A DNA stretch of 33,368 nt, taken from the sequence record NC_070909. The stretch is one strand, 5' to 3'. Shown in pieces: positions 162 through 33,240 of the stretch. Every line of letters starts with the position of its first letter. The stretch's first letter is position 1. The notes under the pieces were generated by a model that saw nothing but the letters and a program-made list of their open reading frames with translations, made no database searches and had not been told where the DNA came from. The translations under genes and the position numbers were made by a program. This DNA comes from Escherichia phage Cartapus.

Positions 162-860
162 ATGGTTATGTTAGTGGATGACTGTCCACGATGTGGATCA
201 CAAAAAATAGCGTTTGATGTTAATGGGCTGAATTGCACTAGGGTTTACAATGCATTGGGCGGGGGTAAAACATACGAGTACGAGGTCTATTGTGTTTGCC
301 GAGAGTGTCATAAAACGACAATGTTTCTTTGCAGACCTTTAACGAAAAATAAAACTTTAGATGGCTATAATTGGGAAAGTGGAATATTCGGCTTAAAGGA
401 AGTTGCAGAGGTTGTTAGGCCTATATCACCGGCAGACTTAGCAGTAGAGGAGCCACCAGAGTTCTTACCTGAGCATATCAATAGTGCATATGAGGAAGGG
501 GCGAAATGTTTGGCTATAGGTTGTTATAATGCAGCAGCAACCATGTTTAGGCTTTGCCTTGATTATGCCACAAAAGGACTTCTTCCTGATGGGGAGCAAG
601 GGCCTGCGCAAAAAATAAGGAGAAGCCTAGGGTTAAGAATGGAGTGGTTATTTGATAATCATCTACTGCCTGAAGCTTTAAGGGAACTAGCTGAATGCGT
701 TAAAGATGACGGAAATGATGGAGCGCATGAAGGTATTTTGGATAAAGCTGCTGCTGAGGATCTTGAAGATTTTACCTATCTTTTTTTAGAACGGCTTTAC
801 ACTGAACCTCAACGCCTTATCGAAGCCAAGACAAGGCGTGAACAAAGAAGAAACAAATAA
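162..860 (+). CDS. accessory protein with N-terminal zinc-ribbon (CPRC...CRECH) and C-terminal DUF4145-like region; function unknown
   Basis: ATG at 162 preceded by GGGAGGAG 8 nt upstream. 232-aa ORF convergent with Q, lying in the cos-Q moron slot. The Cys pairs and the C-terminal GAHEG...LERLY-type region recall DUF4145 (an Abi/restriction-associated domain), from memory only. Confidence 0.6.
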   Translation: MVMLVDDCPRCGSQKIAFDVNGLNCTRVYNALGGGKTYEYEVYCVCRECHKTTMFLCRPLTKNKTLDGYNWESGIFGLKEVAEVVRPISPADLAVEEPPEFLPEHINSAYEEGAKCLAIGCYNAAATMFRLCLDYATKGLLPDGEQGPAQKIRRSLGLRMEWLFDNHLLPEALRELAECVKDDGNDGAHEGILDKAAAEDLEDFTYLFLERLYTEPQRLIEAKTRREQRRNK

Positions 861-20920: not shown

Positions 20921-21402
20921 TGATGGTGCTGGGATTGTACGTGTTTATGCTGCGCACTGTGCCGTATCAGGAACTGCAGTATCAACGCAGCTGGCGACAT
21001 GCGGCAAACAGCCGGGTCAACCGACGTCCGTCCACGCAGTTTCTGGGACCGGACAACGACATGCTGACGCTTTCTGGTGTTCTTATGCCGGAGATAACAG
21101 GCGGCAGGCTGTCGTTGCTGGTACTGGAGCAGATGGCAGAGCAGGGGAAAGCATGGCCCCTGATTGAAGGCAGCGGCACGATTTACGGCATGTATGTGAT
21201 TGAGGGACTGAATCAGACTAAAACGGAGTTTTTCCGCGACGGTATGCCGCGCCGGATTGAGTTCACCCTGTCGCTCAAACGGGTGGATGAATCCCTGTCC
21301 GATATGTTCGGTGATCTCAGTGCGCAACTGAATAATCTGCAGGACACGGCAACGTCTGCCTTAAGCGATATCAGTAAAACGGTGGGAGGGCTGCTGTCGT
21401 GA
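20917..21402 (+). CDS. U: tail protein (P2 gpU-like)
   Basis: 161-aa ORF; its ATG overlaps the T stop (ATGA). Confidence 0.85.
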   Translation: MMMVLGLYVFMLRTVPYQELQYQRSWRHAANSRVNRRPSTQFLGPDNDMLTLSGVLMPEITGGRLSLLVLEQMAEQGKAWPLIEGSGTIYGMYVIEGLNQTKTEFFRDGMPRRIEFTLSLKRVDESLSDMFGDLSAQLNNLQDTATSALSDISKTVGGLLS

Positions 21403-22499
21403 ATTTCAGCTCTGAACTGCTTAACAAAGGCAACAAAACTCCCGCATTCAGCATCAGTATTGAGGGCAGGGATATCACCACTGTGCTGGATAACCGCCTG
21501 ATGAGTTTGACGCTGACGGATAATCGGGGCTTTGAAGCAGACCAGCTTGATCTGGAGCTGGACGACGCCGACGGAAAAATCGTGCTGCCGCGCCGTGGTG
21601 CGGTTATTACGCTGGCGCTGGGCTGGAAGGGGCAGCCGCTTTTCCCGAAAGGGGCATTCACGGTGGACGAGATTGAACACACTGGCGCACCGGACCGCCT
21701 GACTATCCGGGCGCGAAGTGCTGATTTTCGTGAAACGCTGAATACCCGCCGTGAAAAGTCGTGGCACAAGACCACCGTTGGGGAAGTGGTGAAGGAAATA
21801 GCTGCGCGGCACAAACTGAAGATGGCATTGGGTAAAGACCTGTCAGATAAACCCGTGGAACATATAGACCAGACCAATGAGAGTGACGGCAGTTTTCTGA
21901 TGCGACTGGCGCGCCAGTACGGTGCTATTGCGTCGGTGAAAAATGGCAATCTGTTATTCATCCGGCAGGGACAGGGCAAAAGCGCCAGCGGTAAACCACT
22001 GCCGGTGATCACTATCACGCGTAAGGACGGCGACAGTCACCGCTTTACCCTGGCAGATCGCGGAGCCTATACGGGCGTCATTGCCAGCTGGTTGCATACC
22101 CGCGAACCCGCGAAGAAAGAAAGCACCACGGTGAAGCGTAAGCGCAGAACTAAGAAGCAGAAGAAAGAGCCGGAAGCGAAGCAGGGCGATTACCTGGTGG
22201 GGACGGATGAAAACGTGCTGGTACTTAATCGCACTTATGCCAACCGGAGCAACGCCGAACGAGCGGCGAAAATGCAGTGGGAACGCCTGCAACGCGGTGT
22301 TGCGTCATTCTCGCTACAACTGGCGGAAGGTCGGGCAGATCTCTACACGGAAATGCCTGTGAAGGTCAGTGGCTTTAAACAGCCAATAGATGATGCGGAA
22401 TGGACCATTACGACTCTGACACATACCGTCAGCCCGGATAACGGTTTTACGACCAGTATTGAACTTGAAGTGAAAATTGGTGATCTTGAAATGGAGTAA
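21399..22499 (+). CDS. D: tail protein D (P2 gpD-like)
   Basis: 366-aa ORF with a GTG start overlapping the U stop. Last gene of the tail operon before ogr. Confidence 0.85.
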   Translation: MNFSSELLNKGNKTPAFSISIEGRDITTVLDNRLMSLTLTDNRGFEADQLDLELDDADGKIVLPRRGAVITLALGWKGQPLFPKGAFTVDEIEHTGAPDRLTIRARSADFRETLNTRREKSWHKTTVGEVVKEIAARHKLKMALGKDLSDKPVEHIDQTNESDGSFLMRLARQYGAIASVKNGNLLFIRQGQGKSASGKPLPVITITRKDGDSHRFTLADRGAYTGVIASWLHTREPAKKESTTVKRKRRTKKQKKEPEAKQGDYLVGTDENVLVLNRTYANRSNAERAAKMQWERLQRGVASFSLQLAEGRADLYTEMPVKVSGFKQPIDDAEWTITTLTHTVSPDNGFTTSIELEVKIGDLEME

Positions 22500-22567
22500 A
22501 TGGTTCTCAATATTGATATTTTGTGTATCATTGCAATGATTCTGATAGCAAAGGTAGGGATCTGGAT

Positions 22568-22786
22568 ATGATGAATTGTCCAAAGTGTGGTCATGCGGCG
22601 CACACAAGGAGCAGTTTTCAAGTAACAGAAAGCACCAAAGAGCGTTACTGCCAGTGCCAAAATATTAACTGCGGGAGCACTTTTGTTACCCATGAAACAG
22701 TGGTCCGGTTTATTGTGACACCTGCAGTGATTGCCACAGCCCCTCCACATCCATTGCCAGGTGGTCAGGGCCATATGAATTTTTAA
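22568..22786 (+). CDS. ogr: late gene transcriptional activator, Ogr/Delta-type zinc finger
   Basis: Track ORF 22523-22786. The ATG at 22568 gives MMNCPKCGHAAHTRSSFQVTESTKERYCQCQNINCGSTF..., matching the C-x2-C...C-x4-C Ogr zinc finger as recalled. Confidence 0.85.
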   Translation: MMNCPKCGHAAHTRSSFQVTESTKERYCQCQNINCGSTFVTHETVVRFIVTPAVIATAPPHPLPGGQGHMNF

Positions 22787-22793
22787 GAAAGAG

Positions 22794-22817
22794 AACCTGC
22801 TACGGCAGGTTTTTATT
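22794..22817. terminator. hairpin plus T-tract between convergent ogr and the WYL/BRCT gene
   Basis: AACCTGC-TACG-GCAGGTT followed by TTTTATT, 8 nt after the ogr stop. It overlaps the 3-prime end of the minus-strand gene, so it may act in both directions. Confidence 0.6.
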
Positions 22818-23295
22818 CATCTGGGATCTCACCCGTTTCAAGAAAATGTATAAAGCCAGGCTCATCTATGATGATAGTGCCTTTCATCCTGGCTGCCGAT
22901 ACTTTTGATGGGCCTGCATTGTAACCGCAACAGAGCATCTGAAGGTTTTGGGTTACAGATGTTCTTACCGTTAATCCTTGTTCATTCGCCTTATCAACCA
23001 ACCTTTCTTTATCTGCTTTCTTAAATCCGGTGAAACACACATCGAATGTATTTTTTTTCGGACCTGACTGCTTAGTGAGATGTGAGTAGTTTTCGGGGAG
23101 GAATGACGCGCATTCCTGAATGGCTTGTTCTTGTGAATCGTATTGTTTAAGAATGCGGTCTTTTCGGAAGGTTTTTATTCGATCGGTGTTCTTACAAATG
23201 CCCTGTATGTGATTTTCGCTATAACTGATGCTCTGTATTGAGTGAACACCGATACGACCATTTGCATTGATGTAAACAAAGTGAAGTTCTTCCAT
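22813..23295 (-). CDS. small protein with WYL-like N-terminal region and C-terminal BRCT-like domain; function unknown
   Basis: 160-aa ORF, ATG at 23295 with an AAGAGG RBS. C-terminus (DVCFTGF...GLTVRTSVTQNL...GPSK...IIIDEPGFIHFL) resembles the BRCT domain of NAD-dependent ligases. N-terminus (GRIGVHSIQ...IKTFRKDRI) resembles a WYL domain. Both by recalled motifs only. Confidence 0.5.
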   Translation of the reverse strand: MEELHFVYINANGRIGVHSIQSISYSENHIQGICKNTDRIKTFRKDRILKQYDSQEQAIQECASFLPENYSHLTKQSGPKKNTFDVCFTGFKKADKERLVDKANEQGLTVRTSVTQNLQMLCCGYNAGPSKVSAARMKGTIIIDEPGFIHFLETGEIPDE

Positions 23296-23321
23296 GTCAA
23301 ACCTCTTTGCATGATTTCAAG

Positions 23322-23360
23322 ATGGCGACAGGCAAGATGGACGCAAAAGTCTGTCGCCAT
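23322..23360. promoter_or_regulatory. 10-bp perfect inverted repeat with 19-nt spacer (ATGGCGACAG-N19-CTGTCGCCAT) upstream of the WYL/BRCT gene
   Basis: Read directly. Lies between the minus-strand gene start (23295) and attP. Candidate operator or integrase arm-type site. Confidence 0.4.
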
Positions 23361-23376
23361 TTTGCCGCCACTACCT

Positions 23377-23408
23377 AAGAAAAAGGGGCTACGCTTTCAC
23401 GTAACCCC
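23377..23408 (-). terminator. rho-independent terminator on the minus strand immediately after the ssrA-derived core
   Basis: Minus-strand reading gives a 9-bp stem (GGGGUUACG/CGUAGCCCC, one G-U pair), a 6-nt loop and a TTTTTCTT tract, directly downstream of the tmRNA-like 3-prime end. Confidence 0.5.
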
Positions 23409-23418
23409 TTGATTTATT

Positions 23419-23463
23419 TGGTGGAGCTGGCGGGAGTTGAACCCGCGTCCGAAATTCCTACAT
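23419..23463 (-). other. attP: attP core: 45 nt identical to the 3-prime end of ssrA (tmRNA)
   Basis: The reverse complement reads ...ATGTAGGAATTTCGGACGCGGGTTCAACTCCCGCCAGCTCCACCA, the tmRNA T-arm and acceptor end including CCA, as I recall E. coli ssrA. Identity stops abruptly at 23463. Confidence 0.8.
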
Positions 23464-23582
23464 ACCATTTTTACTATAACAAAAACAGTAAATTTCGTTT
23501 GAAAACATATTGTTAATGTTATTTGGTGTTTGTCCGTTTTATAGGTTTTTAATGCTCTGCCGCCAAAATGTCGCCATTACTA

Positions 23583-24788
23583 TCATGGTTTAATATGGGC
23601 ATATACTTGAATTTCATCCATACAAGTTTCGAGTTTATAAAAGTCAGTTAAATTATAGATGTTCAAAATTTCATCATCTATGCTTCCTGTTAGCTCACGA
23701 TTTTTTCTTCTTCGTAGCCTTCTGCTGAGATTCTCTCGATCGGATTGTGCAACTGATTCAGGCACGTACTCAACTGTTTTTAGGACCTGCCAAGATACAG
23801 GCAATGTGAATTTGAAAATTTTCGCTAGATTTGGACAAAATTCATTATTGGCCATCTCCTCGTAACGCACTTTTGGAGGAAGTACCACATTTATTCCTCT
23901 GCTACCTAAGGCATTAGCAGGTAATTTTGTTGAGCGGTAGGCTATACCAACAACATTCTCATTGCTGTTCCGACTGATCCATTGCATCAAAAGATTGGGG
24001 ATAATATATTCTTGTACAAAGGAAGCATTGTCATATTTTTTTAAATAATTGCATGCAATTATCAAAGGCCAAAGTGCTAAATATGAGAGTTTGGTATTGA
24101 AATCATATTTGTTCTTTCTTTTTGACTCTAATATAGATCTCTGTTTATATAAAAAATCAGGTCCTATATTTAGTACCTTTGAGTCATTATTTTTATCGAT
24201 CTTGTAGGCAGATATATATAGCTTATCAAAATCTGGCTTATCCATTTCTCTCCAGCATATATAAAGAGATGTTCCTAAATATAAACAGGGTAGACCAGCA
24301 ACTGAAAATCTCTGTGCTCTAACAAAGTGACGCTGACTGAACGGAATATGAAACATATCTCTTCTTGATGTAAGTGGCGTATCAGATTTTCTAACGCGGA
24401 ATAATGGTTTATCTTCATTACATAAGTCAGAAAGAGGTATGCATATATTTTCAATATGACGAGATATAGTTCGTGGCTCTAGCATACTTTCAAATGAGTC
24501 ATATGCCGACTTAATATCCCCTGATAAAAAACACTCTAAACACGAGACGATTTCTTTCTGCATGATATCTACAGCTCTAAGTCTATTGCGCAAGCGTAAA
24601 CTTAACCTGTTATCATTTTCCTGGATGTAATCTACTAAACAACCCCGGAATTTACTGCATTTTAGAGCGAAGTCATCTATCAAAGTAAGGTTTTTTTCAA
24701 TCTCAATTGGTGGTCGAATACTTGATTTTTTTCTAATAGTGTCAAAAAGATTATTAAGTTCTTCATCGAGTTCTTGTTGAATATGCAT
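23583..24788 (-). CDS. large accessory protein with a RES-domain-like core (possible NAD+-targeting toxin-type fold); function unknown
   Basis: 401-aa AT-rich ORF, 9 nt downstream of the int stop. The central segment ...FRVRKSD...QRFSVAGLPCLYLGTSLYICWRE... parallels the Arg / Tyr-x-x-x-Ser / Glu core of RES toxins (MbcT/ParT type) as recalled. No adjacent antitoxin-like ORF. Confidence 0.5.
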   Translation of the reverse strand: MHIQQELDEELNNLFDTIRKKSSIRPPIEIEKNLTLIDDFALKCSKFRGCLVDYIQENDNRLSLRLRNRLRAVDIMQKEIVSCLECFLSGDIKSAYDSFESMLEPRTISRHIENICIPLSDLCNEDKPLFRVRKSDTPLTSRRDMFHIPFSQRHFVRAQRFSVAGLPCLYLGTSLYICWREMDKPDFDKLYISAYKIDKNNDSKVLNIGPDFLYKQRSILESKRKNKYDFNTKLSYLALWPLIIACNYLKKYDNASFVQEYIIPNLLMQWISRNSNENVVGIAYRSTKLPANALGSRGINVVLPPKVRYEEMANNEFCPNLAKIFKFTLPVSWQVLKTVEYVPESVAQSDRENLSRRLRRRKNRELTGSIDDEILNIYNLTDFYKLETCMDEIQVYAHIKP

Positions 24789-24797
24789 TTTTATTTA

Positions 24798-25814
24798 TCA
24801 CTTTAAGTTAAATAAGGGGTTTTTAGTAACAGCATCTTCAAGATGTTCTGGTGCGAAATGGGCATAGACCATTGTCATTTTTATATCTGAGTGCCCTAAA
24901 ATATCTCTCAATACAAGAATATTTCCGCCATTCATCATAAAGTGACTAGCGAATGTATGGCGCAATACATGCGTGCACTGGCCCTCTGGCAAGTCAATAC
25001 CTGCTCTTTTTACTGCACGCTCAAAAGATTTTCTGCATGGCGTGAATAACTTCCCTCTGTTTTTGGGGAGTTCGTGATACAGATCTTGAGATATTGGTAC
25101 TGTTCTGTTTTTCTTGCCCTTTGTCTTTGTATAAGTAATTCGGTATTTCGATATTTGGTGGCCCTGAAGGTTTTCGGCTTCACTCCACCGTGCGCCGGTA
25201 GCTAAGCATATTTTTGCAATCATTAGTAGGCTCGGGCTTTGAGATTCAGCACATGCAGCCAACAGGCGCTTGATTTCGTCCACGGAAAGAAAAGCCAGCT
25301 CACCTTCGGTAATTTTGAAGGTCGGAAGTCCTGCCAGCGGGTTTGGTGCTGACCAGTGTCCTAGTTTTTTTAATGTACCGAACACCGATGATAGATTGCG
25401 CTGTTCAAGGTTTACCGTGCGGGGCTTAACGGGCGACATAAGCGTGCCATCTTCATTTCGTACTTCACCTTTTAACCGTGCTTCGCGGTATTTCGTAAAG
25501 TCACCGGCTGTTAGTTCTGAGGCGATGGGATCGCCTAGACCATTACAGATAATTCTAAGTTTCGCCATGAGGCGCTTGGGGTCTGCGAGTGTTTGACCAT
25601 ACAGGGAATACCACTGCTCAATTAATTCTGATAGGTGTCGCCGATCTTCCTTTTCCCCCAGCCATGGTTTTTTGTTCACTTCTTCCATTGTGAAGCTTTC
25701 AAAAGCAATGGCTTCGCCTTTCGTAGCAAATTGCTTACGCACGCGCTTGCCATTGCGTCCATTGGGATAGCACTCGCACAACCATTTACCGTTTGGCTGT
25801 TTTCTGACAGTCAT
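24798..25814 (-). CDS. int: tyrosine integrase (phage integrase family)
   Basis: 338 aa. C-terminal ...HVLRHTFASHF...LGHSDIKMTMVYAHF carries the R-H-R-Y catalytic signature. Adjacent to attP and the repressor gene. Confidence 0.9.
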   Translation of the reverse strand: MTVRKQPNGKWLCECYPNGRNGKRVRKQFATKGEAIAFESFTMEEVNKKPWLGEKEDRRHLSELIEQWYSLYGQTLADPKRLMAKLRIICNGLGDPIASELTAGDFTKYREARLKGEVRNEDGTLMSPVKPRTVNLEQRNLSSVFGTLKKLGHWSAPNPLAGLPTFKITEGELAFLSVDEIKRLLAACAESQSPSLLMIAKICLATGARWSEAENLQGHQISKYRITYTKTKGKKNRTVPISQDLYHELPKNRGKLFTPCRKSFERAVKRAGIDLPEGQCTHVLRHTFASHFMMNGGNILVLRDILGHSDIKMTMVYAHFAPEHLEDAVTKNPLFNLK

Positions 25815-25816
25815 GT

Positions 25817-26449
25817 TTAGATACTCTTTATTACTTTGACTGCACGCCCAATAACTTCCACATCATCAGTAGAGCACTCGAAAGACGCTTCATCTTGATT
25901 TACTACAATCTTATTGCCGGGAATCCGCATGATTTTTGCAACAATAATCATTCCATCAATATTGATAAGCCAGAATCCATTGCTGACCTGTTTAATTGAT
26001 TTATCGATGAGATAACAATCAGTAGGGGTTTCTAAGAACATCGATTCTTCATAATCTGCAGGTAATATGCTGTGGTCTAGGAAAATCTCTTCATCAATAC
26101 TGAGTTGTCCATTCTCCAGGGTTCCTTTAGGAATAGCTGGAGTTATGAGTTTGGATAACGGTTTAATTGCTTGTTTGTTCTCATTATGAGAACTTTTCTC
26201 AGGCTCAGCTCCTCCTTTCATGCTTCCCTGTCCTGTAGCTAACCAAAGCAACGAAACACCGGTTTCTAGTGCGCACTGAATTATCCAGTCAGCAGGAAAG
26301 CTGTCACGTAACACTCTGTTTGCCATAGTGCTTTTTGAGACATTCAGGTGCTCGCTTAATGCCTGCTTAGTTGTGAATCCATAAGCCTCAAGCAGCCTTT
26401 CAATAGCTGCCTTACCTCCCGTATCGGAACCCATTCTGATGTTTAACAT
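25817..26449 (-). CDS. cI: CI-like immunity repressor (N-terminal HTH)
   Basis: 210-aa ORF upstream of and co-oriented with int, divergent from the apl/cII operon. HTH-like region TTKQALSEHLNVSKSTMANRV. GGAG RBS. Confidence 0.7.
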   Translation of the reverse strand: MLNIRMGSDTGGKAAIERLLEAYGFTTKQALSEHLNVSKSTMANRVLRDSFPADWIIQCALETGVSLLWLATGQGSMKGGAEPEKSSHNENKQAIKPLSKLITPAIPKGTLENGQLSIDEEIFLDHSILPADYEESMFLETPTDCYLIDKSIKQVSNGFWLINIDGMIIVAKIMRIPGNKIVVNQDEASFECSTDDVEVIGRAVKVIKSI

Positions 26450-27935: not shown

Positions 27936-28169
27936 ATGCGTAATATTGAAACCCTCACAACCAAAGCCGGACCGGATGACGCAGGGCTTAATATTTTACT
28001 GACAGAGGCTCGTCTGGAAGAACGCCGGGCAAGGGCTGAAGCAATGGCAGCTCGCCTTGATAGCCTGGCGTGTCATATCACATCCCGCCAGCTAAACCAC
28101 GTCGAAGCGGCAGAACTACTGCGTGTAACTGCTGAAGCAATCCAGAACGAAGCGCAGGAGATCCACTAA
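27936..28169 (+). CDS. hypothetical small early protein
   Basis: ATG at 27936 with AGGAGA RBS (MRNIETLTTKAG...), 77 aa. Stop overlaps the next gene start (TAATG). Confidence 0.45.
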   Translation: MRNIETLTTKAGPDDAGLNILLTEARLEERRARAEAMAARLDSLACHITSRQLNHVEAAELLRVTAEAIQNEAQEIH

Positions 28170-28396
28170 TGGCTGATGCAATGGATCTCGTACAGCAGCG
28201 CGTTGAAGAAGAACGCCAGCGCCATATTCGTGCTGCCCGTGCCAAAACACCGGGCGTGTCTCGCGTGCTTTGTATTGAATGTGAAGCGCCAATTCCGCCG
28301 GCACGACGCCGCGCCATTCCGGGAGTGCAGCTTTGCATTACCTGCCAGGAAATCGCAGAGCTGAAAGGCAAACATTACAACGGAGGTGCTGTATGA
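28169..28396 (+). CDS. TraR/DksA-family C4 zinc-finger protein
   Basis: 75 aa with C-x2-C...C-x2-C (CIECEAP...CITCQE), typical of phage TraR/DksA-like proteins. Confidence 0.65.
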   Translation: MADAMDLVQQRVEEERQRHIRAARAKTPGVSRVLCIECEAPIPPARRRAIPGVQLCITCQEIAELKGKHYNGGAV

Positions 28397-29250
28397 GCAC
28401 CATCCTGAAATGGGCGGGAAATAAAACCGCCAATATGTCCGAACTGAAAAAACACCTTCCTGCTGGCCCGCGACTGGTTGAACCTTTCGCGGGTTCCTGT
28501 GCTGTGATGATGGAGACGGATTACCCCAGCTATCTGGTTGCGGATATTAATCCTGATTTAATCAACCTCTATAAAAAGGTTGCCGCTGATTGTGAATCGT
28601 TTATATCTCGCGCCAGAGTTTTATTTGAGATCGCAAACAGGGAGGTGGCTTATTACAACATAAGGCAGGAGTTTAATTACTCCACTGAAATTACTGATTT
28701 CATGAAAGCGGTATATTTCCTGTATCTCAATCGTCACGGTTACCGTGGTTTATGTCGTTATAACAAGAGCGGGCATTTCAACATTCCCTACGGTAATTAT
28801 AAAAATCCGTATTTCCCTGAAAAAGAAATTCGTGCATTTGCAGAAAAAGCCCAGCGGGCAACATTTATCTGCGCCAGCTTCGATGAAACGCTGGCAATGT
28901 TGCACGCGGGAGATGTGGTGTATTGCGATCCGCCGTATGACGGTACGTTTTCCGGCTATCACACTGATGGTTTCACTGAAGATGACCAGTATCACCTGGC
29001 ATCCGTTCTTGAACATCGGTCATCAGAAGGACATCCAGTCATTGTTTCTAACAGTGACACATCCCTGATCCGTTCGCTGTATCGCAATTTTACTCACCAC
29101 TATATCAAGGTAAAACGCAGCATCGGTGTGGCAGCTGGCGAGGGTAAATCAGCAACAGAAATCATTGCTGTTTCCGGGCCGTGCTGCTGGATGGGATTTG
29201 ATTATTCGCGTGGCGTGGATAGTTCTGCCGTGTACGGAGTACGTGCATGA
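28393..29250 (+). CDS. dam: DNA adenine methyltransferase (Dam-like, N6-adenine, DPPY motif)
   Basis: Track ORF 28333-29250. ATG at 28393 with GGAGG RBS gives [11 protein letters not shown]..., like the Dam N-terminus. Catalytic DPPY is present (VYCDPPYDG). Confidence 0.85.
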
Positions 29251-31813: not shown

Positions 31814-32002
31814 ATGCAGGACTATTTTTTGGAGTCTTTGAAGCTCCAGCGCATTGATTTTTTTCTTAAGCTTGTAGCGGCTAGTGAGTGTAGTGATGAA
31901 GAGAAGGGGCTGGCCCTGCAGTGGGTTTCTGAACTGACAGATGAACTCATGGCAAAAATCAGAACCCACGAATACAACCGCTCAATGGATGTCATCAGCT
32001 GA
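31814..32002 (+). CDS. tum: Tum-like SOS-inducible antirepressor (putative)
   Basis: 62-aa ORF with AGGAGGA RBS directly downstream of the LexA box, followed by a DinI-like ORF, as at the phage 186 tum locus. Confidence 0.45.
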   Translation: MQDYFLESLKLQRIDFFLKLVAASECSDEEKGLALQWVSELTDELMAKIRTHEYNRSMDVIS

Positions 32003-32012
32003 GGTGACTTTT

Positions 32013-32246
32013 ATGCGCATTGAAATAATGATCGATAAAGAGCAGAAGATTAGCCAGTCTACCCTGGACGCTCTGGAGTCCGAGCTTTACCGCAACCTGC
32101 AACCCATCTATCCCAAGACAGCTATCCGCATCCGTAAAGGGTCGGCAAACGGCGTTGAGCTGAGTGGCTTAAAGCTTGATGAAGACAAAAAGCGGGTGAT
32201 GGAAATTATGCAGCAGGTTTGGGAAGACGACAGCTGGCTGCACTAA
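32013..32246 (+). CDS. DinI-like protein
   Basis: Track ORF 31941-32246. The ATG at 32013 gives MRIEIMIDKEQKISQSTLDALESELYRNLQ..., closely parallel to E. coli DinI as recalled. 77 aa. Confidence 0.75.
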   Translation: MRIEIMIDKEQKISQSTLDALESELYRNLQPIYPKTAIRIRKGSANGVELSGLKLDEDKKRVMEIMQQVWEDDSWLH

Positions 32247-32319
32247 GGAACGTTCCTGATGTAAGAACTTGATTCTGACGTCAGCAAGGTTGAACAACGA
32301 GAGTAGCGAGGCGTTAGCC

Positions 32320-32580
32320 ATGGGTAAAAAAGACAGTAATCACCAGATTATTTATCGGGGCCAGGTGCTGGAACGGTTTACCCCTGGCGGCTGGGTCTTC
32401 TTTCAACGCCCAAAGGAGTGTGGCGGAGGTTTTTGGTTGGGCCGCACCTATGAAGACTGCTTCTGGCTTGAGCTGGAATTCCCCGTTTCGCTATATGACG
32501 GCCTGGAGTTTTTGATGGAAGTCACCAGGGTAGAGCAGAGAAGTGATGAGGTTGACGCGAATTATTCCCTGTTTGATTAA
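32320..32580 (+). CDS. hypothetical protein (accessory, cos-proximal)
   Basis: Track ORF 32269-32580. ATG at 32320 (MGKKDSNHQIIYRGQ...), 86 aa. No domain recognised. Confidence 0.4.
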   Translation: MGKKDSNHQIIYRGQVLERFTPGGWVFFQRPKECGGGFWLGRTYEDCFWLELEFPVSLYDGLEFLMEVTRVEQRSDEVDANYSLFD

Positions 32581-32628
32581 AAATGTATTAGCTTATAATG
32601 GAATACTATTTTTGCAGGTGGGGGCGCA

Positions 32629-33240
32629 ATGGATTTAGTCTTTAAAATTCTGGCTTCGTTGGGTGGGGTGTCTTTTGTTGCATCTGGCATATTTGTTTGG
32701 ATCGGGAAAGTTTATTTAGAAAGATATAAGTCGCGGCTAAACAAAGATATTGCTGAATTTCAATCACAACTGAGTGCAACTAATGAAAGAATAAAGGCTA
32801 AGTTAGACAATTCTGTTTATGTAACGAAAGCGTATTTTGATAAGGAGTTATCAGCATATAGTCTCATTTGGAATTCGATGTTTGAAACCAGAGAAAGCGT
32901 GCTTAAGCTGAGGCCTGCGCTGGATCATTTTGACCCCAACGAACCATTTGAAGAGAGAAAATTTAGAAGGTTGAAAGTTTTTTTCGATGCATTTAATACT
33001 TTTGTTACAAGTGTTGAGTCTAACAAACCGTTCATCTCACCAGAGGTTTATATAATCTTGGACCGTTTCCGGAAGGAATGCCTTTCAGAGTCAATATCGT
33101 TTCAGCATGGCGATCCAGAATTTGACTGGCAAAATTATTGGAAAGAGGCAGAGTTGAACCGTACAACCATCACCAAGCTTTTTGATGAGACGTGTGATGC
33201 AATTCGAGACAGGATGCACACATTAACTGTGGTTACGTAG
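32629..33240 (+). CDS. hypothetical membrane-anchored protein (accessory, cos-proximal moron)
   Basis: 203-aa AT-rich ORF with one N-terminal hydrophobic helix (LVFKILASLGGVSFVASGIFVWIG), then a charged, probably helical region. Followed by a terminator. Confidence 0.5.
   Translation: MDLVFKILASLGGVSFVASGIFVWIGKVYLERYKSRLNKDIAEFQSQLSATNERIKAKLDNSVYVTKAYFDKELSAYSLIWNSMFETRESVLKLRPALDHFDPNEPFEERKFRRLKVFFDAFNTFVTSVESNKPFISPEVYIILDRFRKECLSESISFQHGDPEFDWQNYWKEAELNRTTITKLFDETCDAIRDRMHTLTVVT

Follow-up and report, generated by a model that had tools for sequence, protein, structure and literature searches.

The stretch of DNA analyzed here (33,368 nucleotides; hereafter the window) is the sequence record NC_070909 of Escherichia phage Cartapus, a P2-like (Peduoviridae) temperate phage, and the subject of this report is a gene located between ogr and the phage attachment site attP. 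The encoded protein of 160 residues, referred to below as WYL-BRCT, joins two domains with nothing else. The evidence supports well a soluble, non-enzymatic two-domain protein made up of a WYL-type ligand-binding barrel, a flexible linker, and a BRCT domain of the DNA-binding class with an intact phosphate pocket; for the domains and their layout taken alone, our confidence is high. It is likewise well supported that temperate P2-like phages carry the gene as an accessory within their lysogenic (repressor-side) transcription unit. With regard to function, we tentatively favor, at somewhat less than an even chance, a non-enzymatic protein, expressed in lysogens, that senses single-stranded DNA (ssDNA) and 5'-phosphate DNA structures and takes part in exclusion or defense. 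Both domains, and the fusion itself as catalogued in 2014, are already known. New are the definition of a large family, its steady place after the repressor in P2-like prophages, the membrane-anchored third of its members, and the defense neighborhoods in which it is found.

The WYL-BRCT open reading frame (ORF) is a genuine gene under purifying selection. An ORF of this length, convergent with ogr, is present as the first-pass annotation of the window described it, and the motifs quoted there are found in its translation at residues 40-48 (IKTFRKDRI), 89-91 (TGF), 128-131 (GPSK) and 142-145 (IIDE). A Shine-Dalgarno sequence (AGAGG) lies 7 nucleotides 5' of the ATG, the protein matches PHROG 2561 (labelled "DNA ligase") at 2.5e-77, and comparison with relatives that are 97-99% identical gave ratios of nonsynonymous to synonymous substitution (dN/dS) of 0.06 and 0.18. 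A word-indexed search returned 122 homologues of the protein, and a search of 1.84 billion representatives with a family profile returned 2758 clusters at E<=1e-3, 889 at E<=1e-10 and 204 at E<=1e-30. Nine columns are invariant in an alignment of 50 sequences with identities down to 31% (Y8, T42, T89, G90, F91, L99, L121, G124 and K131), and the C-terminal T-G-E-I-P tail is specific to the family. The GC content of the gene is 0.41, as compared to 0.41 for cI, 0.45 for int and 0.51 for the whole window. One copy among the 80 IMG/VR loci described below (L052:6001-6480, 96% identical) displays an in-frame TGA in the codon comparison, which may indicate a pseudogene or a sequencing error.

The N-terminal domain was assigned from structure prediction and profile searches. 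When predicted alone, residues 1-66 form, with a predicted local distance difference test score of 95, an Sm-like barrel of five strands that can be overlaid on WYL domains of known structure. Pfam PF13280 does not match the window protein itself; the PADLOC WYL model matches it at E=0.027, PF13280 matches four of the 50 family members (best 1.5e-5), and the family member P0141 scores 28.5 bits against PF13280 at a cutoff of 21.8. The WYL-like call that had been read from the letters alone is supported. The KTFRKDRI strand of the window protein fits the tail of the WYL consensus, R/K-x-F-R-x-D-R-I, while the W-Y-L triplet is replaced by H-I-Q in a strand that reads H-I-Q-G-I-C. According to PMC11662680, the WYL domains of CapW, DriD and PafBC bind ssDNA; the CapW residues in contact with ssDNA are S144, R164, R168 and R184, and its motif reads RWHVR (PMC11662680). 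Among contacts of the CapW type, K/R41 in [KR]TFR alone is plausibly kept, with the register taken from secondary structure. In agreement with the first-pass annotation, neither Pfam nor the predicted fold revealed a helix-turn-helix (HTH), and the WYL barrel of that fold begins at residue 3. Both the N-terminal winged HTH (wHTH) and the C-terminal WCX domain of the CapW/BrxR/DriD/PafBC regulators are missing from the window protein, and it therefore cannot be a DNA-sequence-specific regulator. Searches with Pfam, PHROG, NCBIfam and PADLOC detected no catalytic domain, the BRCT and WYL matches being the only ones in the 160 residues.

The C-terminal domain was assigned in the same manner. Residues 84-154 display the beta-alpha-beta-beta-alpha-beta-alpha arrangement of BRCT domains. 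Pfam BRCT (PF00533) matches the window protein with 19.9 bits (E=9e-4), just below the gathering cutoff of 21.3, and matches 37 of the 50 family members at E<=0.01 (best 2.1e-6); the family profile in turn matches the BRCT chains of LigA (1dgs) and RFC1 at ~4e-5. These searches together with the predicted fold support the BRCT-like region that had been proposed for this part of the protein. The phosphate pocket is present as well, with S/T-G in the beta1-alpha1 loop and a lysine that opens alpha2, and its three residues T89, G90 and K131 are all among the invariant columns. In alignment, the family motifs FTGF and GpsK fall on "LTGE...PG-SK" of LigA and on "FTGV...AGPKK" of yeast Rfc1. The isolated RFC1 BRCT (the "ligase homology region") binds 5'-phosphorylated recessed DNA at ~10 nM, and Rfc1 K208, within the aligned AGPKK loop, lines the cavity for the 5' end (PMC9293004).

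In NCBIfam, the alignment with the window protein is limited to the final ~100 residues of the models for LigA and for a DEDDh exonuclease; in the LigA models these are positions ~547-664 (the BRCT), with 12-21 bits against cutoffs of 369-1051. Neither Pfam nor NCBIfam detected in the window protein the adenylation domain with KxDG, the OB fold, the Zn finger or the HhH of LigA. Since all of these domains are missing, WYL-BRCT cannot ligate, and the label "DNA ligase" in RefSeq phage records is wrong, the BRCT being the sole ligase part present. Under this name, which probably spread from that of PHROG 2561, the protein of 160-172 residues appears in NC_049342.1 (gp44), NC_008201.1 (ORF34), NC_028898.1 and NC_047750.1. 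A separate proposal is that the protein helps to join DNA, binding nicks or cohesive ends and recruiting or assisting host LigA with a BRCT supplied in trans, for example when the annealed cos ends of an infecting genome are sealed. This would agree with a BRCT nearest to those of LigA and RFC1, with the RefSeq label, with a solved phage heterodimeric NAD ligase that carries its BRCT on a separate subunit (9hu3_B), and with a homologue encoded just downstream of a full ligA-type gene (locus L203). The ligase of L203, however, has a BRCT of its own, the adenylation, OB, Zn and HhH domains are lacking, the phages P2, 186, Fels-2 and RE-2010 manage without the gene, and both its lysogenic-operon place and its membrane-anchored relatives (see below) misfit a role in genome entry. 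We consequently regard a ligation helper as very improbable.

The distribution of the gene and its position among related phages link it to the lysogenic state. Within 50,697 phage records, every occurrence was in a temperate P2-like phage, with Escherichia, Yersinia, Mannheimia, Burkholderia, Vibrio and Pseudomonas as hosts, and virulent phages lacked the gene. Eighty loci were recovered from IMG/VR with the family profile, and in all 80 the gene adjoins ogr convergently, with gpD beyond (detected in 79), close to the recovered end of the contig; this layout represents a single enterobacterial clade only. A broader picture was obtained from a scan of one genome per species, which returned 63 loci, 60 of which were examined. 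In at least 19 of these 60, the gene has a recognizable phage repressor upstream, in the same orientation and ending no more than 150 bp away; in 7 more the repressor is slightly further off, and the ogr-type arrangement occurs in 6. In most other lineages the gene comes after a co-oriented repressor, and often just before int. In Mannheimia PHL101 it follows CI after a gap of 3 bp; in Vibrio PV94 the order is repressor, gene, ORF and int; in Burkholderia vB_FUB5a it is XRE repressor, ORF and gene; in Xenorhabdus and a second P2-like contig it is CI, gene and int with a gap of 2-15 bp; and in Serratia it is repressor, Flk_N ORF, gene and int. The position between ogr and attP is a minority, derived enterobacterial variant, and the place after the repressor is the usual one. 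Because cI, int, a 401-residue ORF that the first-pass annotation labelled RES-like, attP and the gene are all co-directional on the circular map, the window variant looks like a repressor unit with the gene moved across attP.

Many relatives carry additional segments outside the two-domain module. Hydrophobic segments resembling transmembrane (TM) helices were found in 47 of the 150 top representative clusters (~31%), mostly at the N-terminus and followed by a disordered linker (P0158, P0207, P0171, P0141, P0181 and P0205 are examples). The two cases examined lie directly after a phage repressor; a TM-anchored form with two BRCT domains is found directly after a P2-like CI, and another TM-anchored protein immediately downstream of a lambda-type S24 CI. 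Pfam found nothing in the extensions of longer relatives, which consist of TM helices, a second BRCT, or an uncharacterized domain with the motifs "(F/H)-E-G-D-V-F-Y" and "F-x-x-W-L-x-T-G-x-x-P" that is fused to either side of the WYL-BRCT module. This "EGDVFY...WL-TG-P" domain occupies the N-terminus of P0121 and the C-termini of P0160, P0173, P0175, P0187, P0189, P0197, P0240, P0247 and P0262, equals the C-terminal half of phrog_36782, and is encoded as a separate next gene in an integron locus (L191:5592-6098). It has no convincing relative in the PDB and is absent from the window; its tail motif is similar to FLETGEIP, with which the window protein ends.

The surroundings of the gene repeatedly include defense functions. 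The interval between cI and int of P2-related phages of Vibrio is a defense hotspot according to Rousset et al. (PMC9122126). In sister phages of the window, the slot between ogr and the att core (22787-23418) varies (loci L095, L133, L143, L146-L148 and L151): it is empty (118-121 bp) or holds WYL-BRCT (636 bp), a small secreted protein (523-563 bp), a 237-residue membrane protein (1020 bp), or a retron-type reverse transcriptase with a small TM ORF (1319 bp), the reverse transcriptase matching PADLOC RT_VI at 1e-17. Copies outside prophages adjoin Mrr (in two lineages), GmrSD_N+HNH, and MrcB_N+HNH (with a 3-bp gap), and one such copy sits between AbiGi and AbiTii. In the P2-like prophage of L169, putAbiC lies near a TM-anchored form. 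In L191 and L200, the WYL-BRCT genes are probably integron cassettes, because integron integrases (TIGR02249, 468-480 bits) are encoded ~0.5 kb away. The gene is also a candidate lysogenic conversion gene (moron), with a variable slot, a GC content below that of the window, and a location in, or co-orientation with, the repressor operon.

Placement beside the repressor could also signify a regulator of lysogeny or induction, in which the WYL domain would sense ssDNA arising from damage and the BRCT would signal to the repressor, Int, or Cox/Apl, independently of LexA and Tum, so as to tune induction, excision, or the establishment of lysogeny. Known WYL proteins are ssDNA-triggered damage sensors, the gene adjoins the repressor and often stands 3-22 bp before int, or adjoins attP, its GC content matches those of cI and int, and it co-diverges with core phage genes. 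Opposed to this are the at least three unrelated repressor types with which the gene is paired (186-type CI, XRE/P2 C-type, and lambda-type S24 CI), which make a specific protein partner unlikely. Membrane-anchored forms hold the same position, other copies, next to restriction and Abi genes or in integrons, lie outside prophages, the phage already has a DinI/Tum-like ORF, and the protein lacks an HTH. We therefore view a regulator as unlikely; if it were true, the gene would supply a LexA-independent damage input to the phage switch.

The placement in the repressor operon of related phages suggests that WYL-BRCT probably serves to protect lysogens from other phages. Most lineages would transcribe the gene together with the repressor. 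In the window phage, transcription of the cI-int-RES-like unit may cross attP in the circular form, or read-through of the strongly transcribed host gene ssrA may reach the gene in the lysogen, and either route would provide a low constitutive level in the lysogen. The WYL barrel would bind ssDNA or a related anionic ligand and the BRCT pocket a 5'-phosphate at a nick or recessed end, so that the two domains together may recognize junctions of single- and double-stranded DNA such as cohesive ends, gaps, and the rolling-circle or replication intermediates of incoming DNA. Occupying such structures would keep the DNA of a superinfecting phage or mobile element from being end-joined, ligated or replicated, and about a third of the relatives would do so while tethered to the inner membrane. 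The Tin protein of P2, which interferes with ssDNA-bound replication proteins, is a precedent for non-enzymatic interference. A more specific version, an immunity without effector in which WYL-BRCT caps the 5'-phosphate junctions between single- and double-stranded DNA of incoming phages or plasmids, from the cytoplasm in the window phage or from the inner membrane, is possible though doubtful.

The same binding properties could serve the phage in the opposite direction. A counter-defense protein or signal sponge would sequester ssDNA or DNA ends derived from infection or induction, so that WYL repressors of the CapW/BrxR type and RecBCD-linked or end-sensing systems stay untriggered; alternatively, it would read ADP-ribosylated DNA. 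BRCT pockets of other proteins bind phosphate or ADP-ribose ligands, which lends this proposal some appeal, as does the fact that the gene is phage-borne. Host ssDNA sensors by which CBASS and BREX are switched on have, moreover, the same WYL fold, and CapW-controlled CBASS restricts prophage induction (PMC11662680). Against a sponge, the gene belongs to the repressor operon, or runs in its direction, and not to an early lytic operon, virulent phages lack it, it is found in bacterial defense-gene neighborhoods and integron cassettes, and membrane anchoring misfits a soluble sponge. We consider it improbable. The first-pass annotation had offered a sensor or regulator, or an anti-defense factor, as the role of the gene. 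The sensor-like role in phage-host conflict fits our results, while the anti-defense direction is made less likely by the repressor-operon place, the absence from records of phages that are not P2-like, and the copies beside restriction and Abi genes and in integrons.

Several points weigh against the exclusion or defense function favored here. Over a wide range, the gene has diverged in step with gpD and ogr, and it holds the same post-repressor place in very distant P2-like phages, and this constancy resembles a phage-intrinsic lysogeny function more than swappable defense cargo. The window protein matches no complete defense model of PADLOC-DB v2. In its H-I-Q-G-I-C strand, the arginines of the CapW RWHVR motif are seemingly missing, in a register deduced from secondary structure, and the WYL ligand may therefore differ from ssDNA. 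By residue count the protein is not basic overall, so that DNA binding is not guaranteed. Its expression in the lysogen is deduced from gene order only. A search of full-text literature found no functional study of the WYL-BRCT family, but only the listing of the fusion in 2014.

To date, WYL domains have been understood as ssDNA-sensing switches on HTH regulators, and BRCT domains in bacteria chiefly as attachments to ligases and exonucleases. The present family, with thousands of members, combines these two domains alone and has a very consistent place after the repressor in P2-like prophages. If the lysogen is indeed protected through the binding of DNA intermediates, an enzyme-free principle would be added to those of defense. 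A defense function would also explain a conserved prophage gene that is unannotated or misannotated (as "DNA ligase") in Escherichia, Klebsiella, Yersinia, Mannheimia, Vibrio, Burkholderia and Pseudomonas, and immunity by junction capping, if true, would explain the retention of the gene in the repressor operon of temperate P2-like phages of Gammaproteobacteria and Betaproteobacteria.

The features of the window that surround the gene are given in Table 1.

Table 1. WYL-BRCT gene, its domains and neighboring features in the window (NC_070909)
Feature	Position	Strand	Remarks
gpD	21399-22499	+	Upstream of ogr, same strand
ogr	22568-22786	+	Pfam Ogr_Delta 1.3e-20
Hairpin terminator in the ogr/WYL-BRCT intergenic interval (genes convergent)	22794-22811	.	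7-bp stem, 4 GC pairs
WYL-BRCT coding sequence, 160 residues, PHROG 2561	22813-23295	-	ORF; ATG at 23295, stop at 22813
BRCT domain, LigA/RFC1 class, residues 84-154	22834-23046	-	Invariant T89-G90 and K131 phosphate pocket, basic K92/K93/K96 cluster
WYL-type (Sm-like) five-stranded beta-barrel plus helix, residues 1-66	23098-23295	-	KTFRKDRI motif present, W-Y-L triplet missing
Inverted fifth octamer, equal to the other arm of the inverted repeat	23322-23331	.	Only in the E. coli-type clade of the window
Tandem octamer pair, gene-proximal att arm	23352-23370	.	One octamer is one arm of the inverted repeat
Phage-supplied terminator after the reconstituted ssrA 3' end, before the WYL-BRCT gene	23383-23410	-	12-bp stem; conserved in ssrA-integrating relatives
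attP core, 45 nucleotides identical to the 3' end of the host tmRNA gene ssrA	23419-23463	-	Sequence, lysogen junctions, matches in phage and prophage records
Second tandem octamer pair, other att arm	23558-23576	.	Same octamers
401-residue ORF between int and attP	23583-24788	-	PHROG 7835 (unknown function) 1.4e-198; GC 0.35
RES-like ORF, int and 186-type cI, same strand as the WYL-BRCT gene	23583-26449	-	Four genes co-directional across attP on the circular phage

In lysogens, WYL-BRCT is the last gene of the prophage, at the end opposite int, as the first-pass annotation had stated. In the lysogen E. coli 07-4299 (NZ_CP027462), the gene has the same orientation as ssrA and lies 123 bp downstream of its end; between the cI-int-RES-like transcription unit and the gene, the circular phage has the terminator at 23383-23410. 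No sigma-70-like promoter was found on the minus strand at 23296-23410, and the upstream sequences of diverse relatives have no conserved -35/-10 elements. Rfam and tRNA scans of the window returned nothing; the att core holds too little of ssrA. The region from 21399 to 25814 is a mosaic: gpD, ogr and WYL-BRCT are 97-100% identical to E. coli prophages, and the side comprised of attP, the RES-like ORF and int is 99.5% identical to Salmonella phage RE-2010, which is without the WYL-BRCT gene. The early region encodes a DksA/TraR-like zinc-finger ORF (28169-28396, +; phrog_54), a DNA methyltransferase (28333-29250, +; phrog_56) and the DinI/Tum-like ORF (31941-32246, +; phrog_189). Near the ends of the window, at 32269-33240 (+) and 162-860 (+), the matches are phrog_2100 and phrog_26391 (function not known) and the "DNA binding protein" phrog_1305; if the window ends are the cos ends, these end-proximal ORFs could fall in the cos-adjacent P2-like hotspot of Rousset et al. 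(PMC9122126).

The perfect 10-bp inverted repeat that had been noticed upstream of the gene does exist, with ATGGCGACAG at 23322-23331 and CTGTCGCCAT at 23351-23360, but its reading as a feature of the WYL-BRCT gene is not supported. An octamer, TG(T/C)CGCCA, occurs in five copies around the att core, as two tandem pairs with 11-bp spacing and one inverted copy. Relatives that use other att sites (a tRNA or the 3' end of another gene) keep a tandem pair that co-varies with them, TGGCAGCA being present twice in a tRNA-integrating relative, while the inverted copy is missing from the clade of 74% identity. Since the tandem octamers flank the att core and co-vary with phage lineage, they are probably arm-type sites of Int and not an operator of the gene. 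An operator role of the inverted repeat was rejected because its arm belongs to the octamer family and the inverted copy is not conserved.

The first-pass annotation had further considered the closeness of WYL-BRCT to a RES-like, putatively NAD+-utilizing protein suggestive. The Pfam RES model matches the 401-residue ORF at only E=0.23 (11.9 bits, below the cutoff of 23.2), so that neither the label nor the proposed identity is supported. Phage RE-2010 has the RES-like gene without WYL-BRCT and Yersinia phage MLG42 has WYL-BRCT without the RES-like gene; a partnership of the two was therefore rejected, each occurring without the other, and the suggested link did not hold. The RES-like gene was detected in 4 of the 80 IMG/VR loci, which is weak evidence as most of these loci end before the int side.

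Comparison with known systems serves to place the WYL-BRCT protein. With the wHTH-WYL-WCX factors (CapW, BrxR, DriD and PafBC), it shares the R/K-x-F-R-x-D-R-I strand motif and the association with phage-bacterium conflict, but it has H-I-Q in place of W-Y-L and a fused BRCT instead of their other domains. The BRCT domains of LigA and RFC1 have the same fold and the nearest sequence, and their TG loop and pocket lysine are kept in the window protein; unlike them, its BRCT stands without a ligase or clamp-loader module and has an additional conserved basic cluster (K92, K93 and K96) and the T-G-E-I-P tail. The partial PADLOC matches of the window protein are to the WYL model, to the tail of SspE, and to the C-terminal 70 residues of PDC-S48, a model of 411 residues with which the BRCT aligns at 1.7e-7 while the rest is uncovered, so that the two are not the same protein. 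A survey of CARF and WYL domains from 2014 lists a WYL+BRCT fusion among WYL architectures (PMC4012209), as a one-word catalogue entry without a definition of the family, its phage or lysogeny context, or its function. The exclusion and defense genes of P2-like lysogens (P2 old, tin and fun(Z), K139 glo, and the cargo of the cI-int and cos-proximal sites) are accessory and of lower GC content like the window gene, and like it they are found at a prophage end or between repressor and int and are patchy among related phages. WYL-BRCT has no relation to these in sequence or fold, and typical hotspot cargo is far less constant in position from genus to genus.

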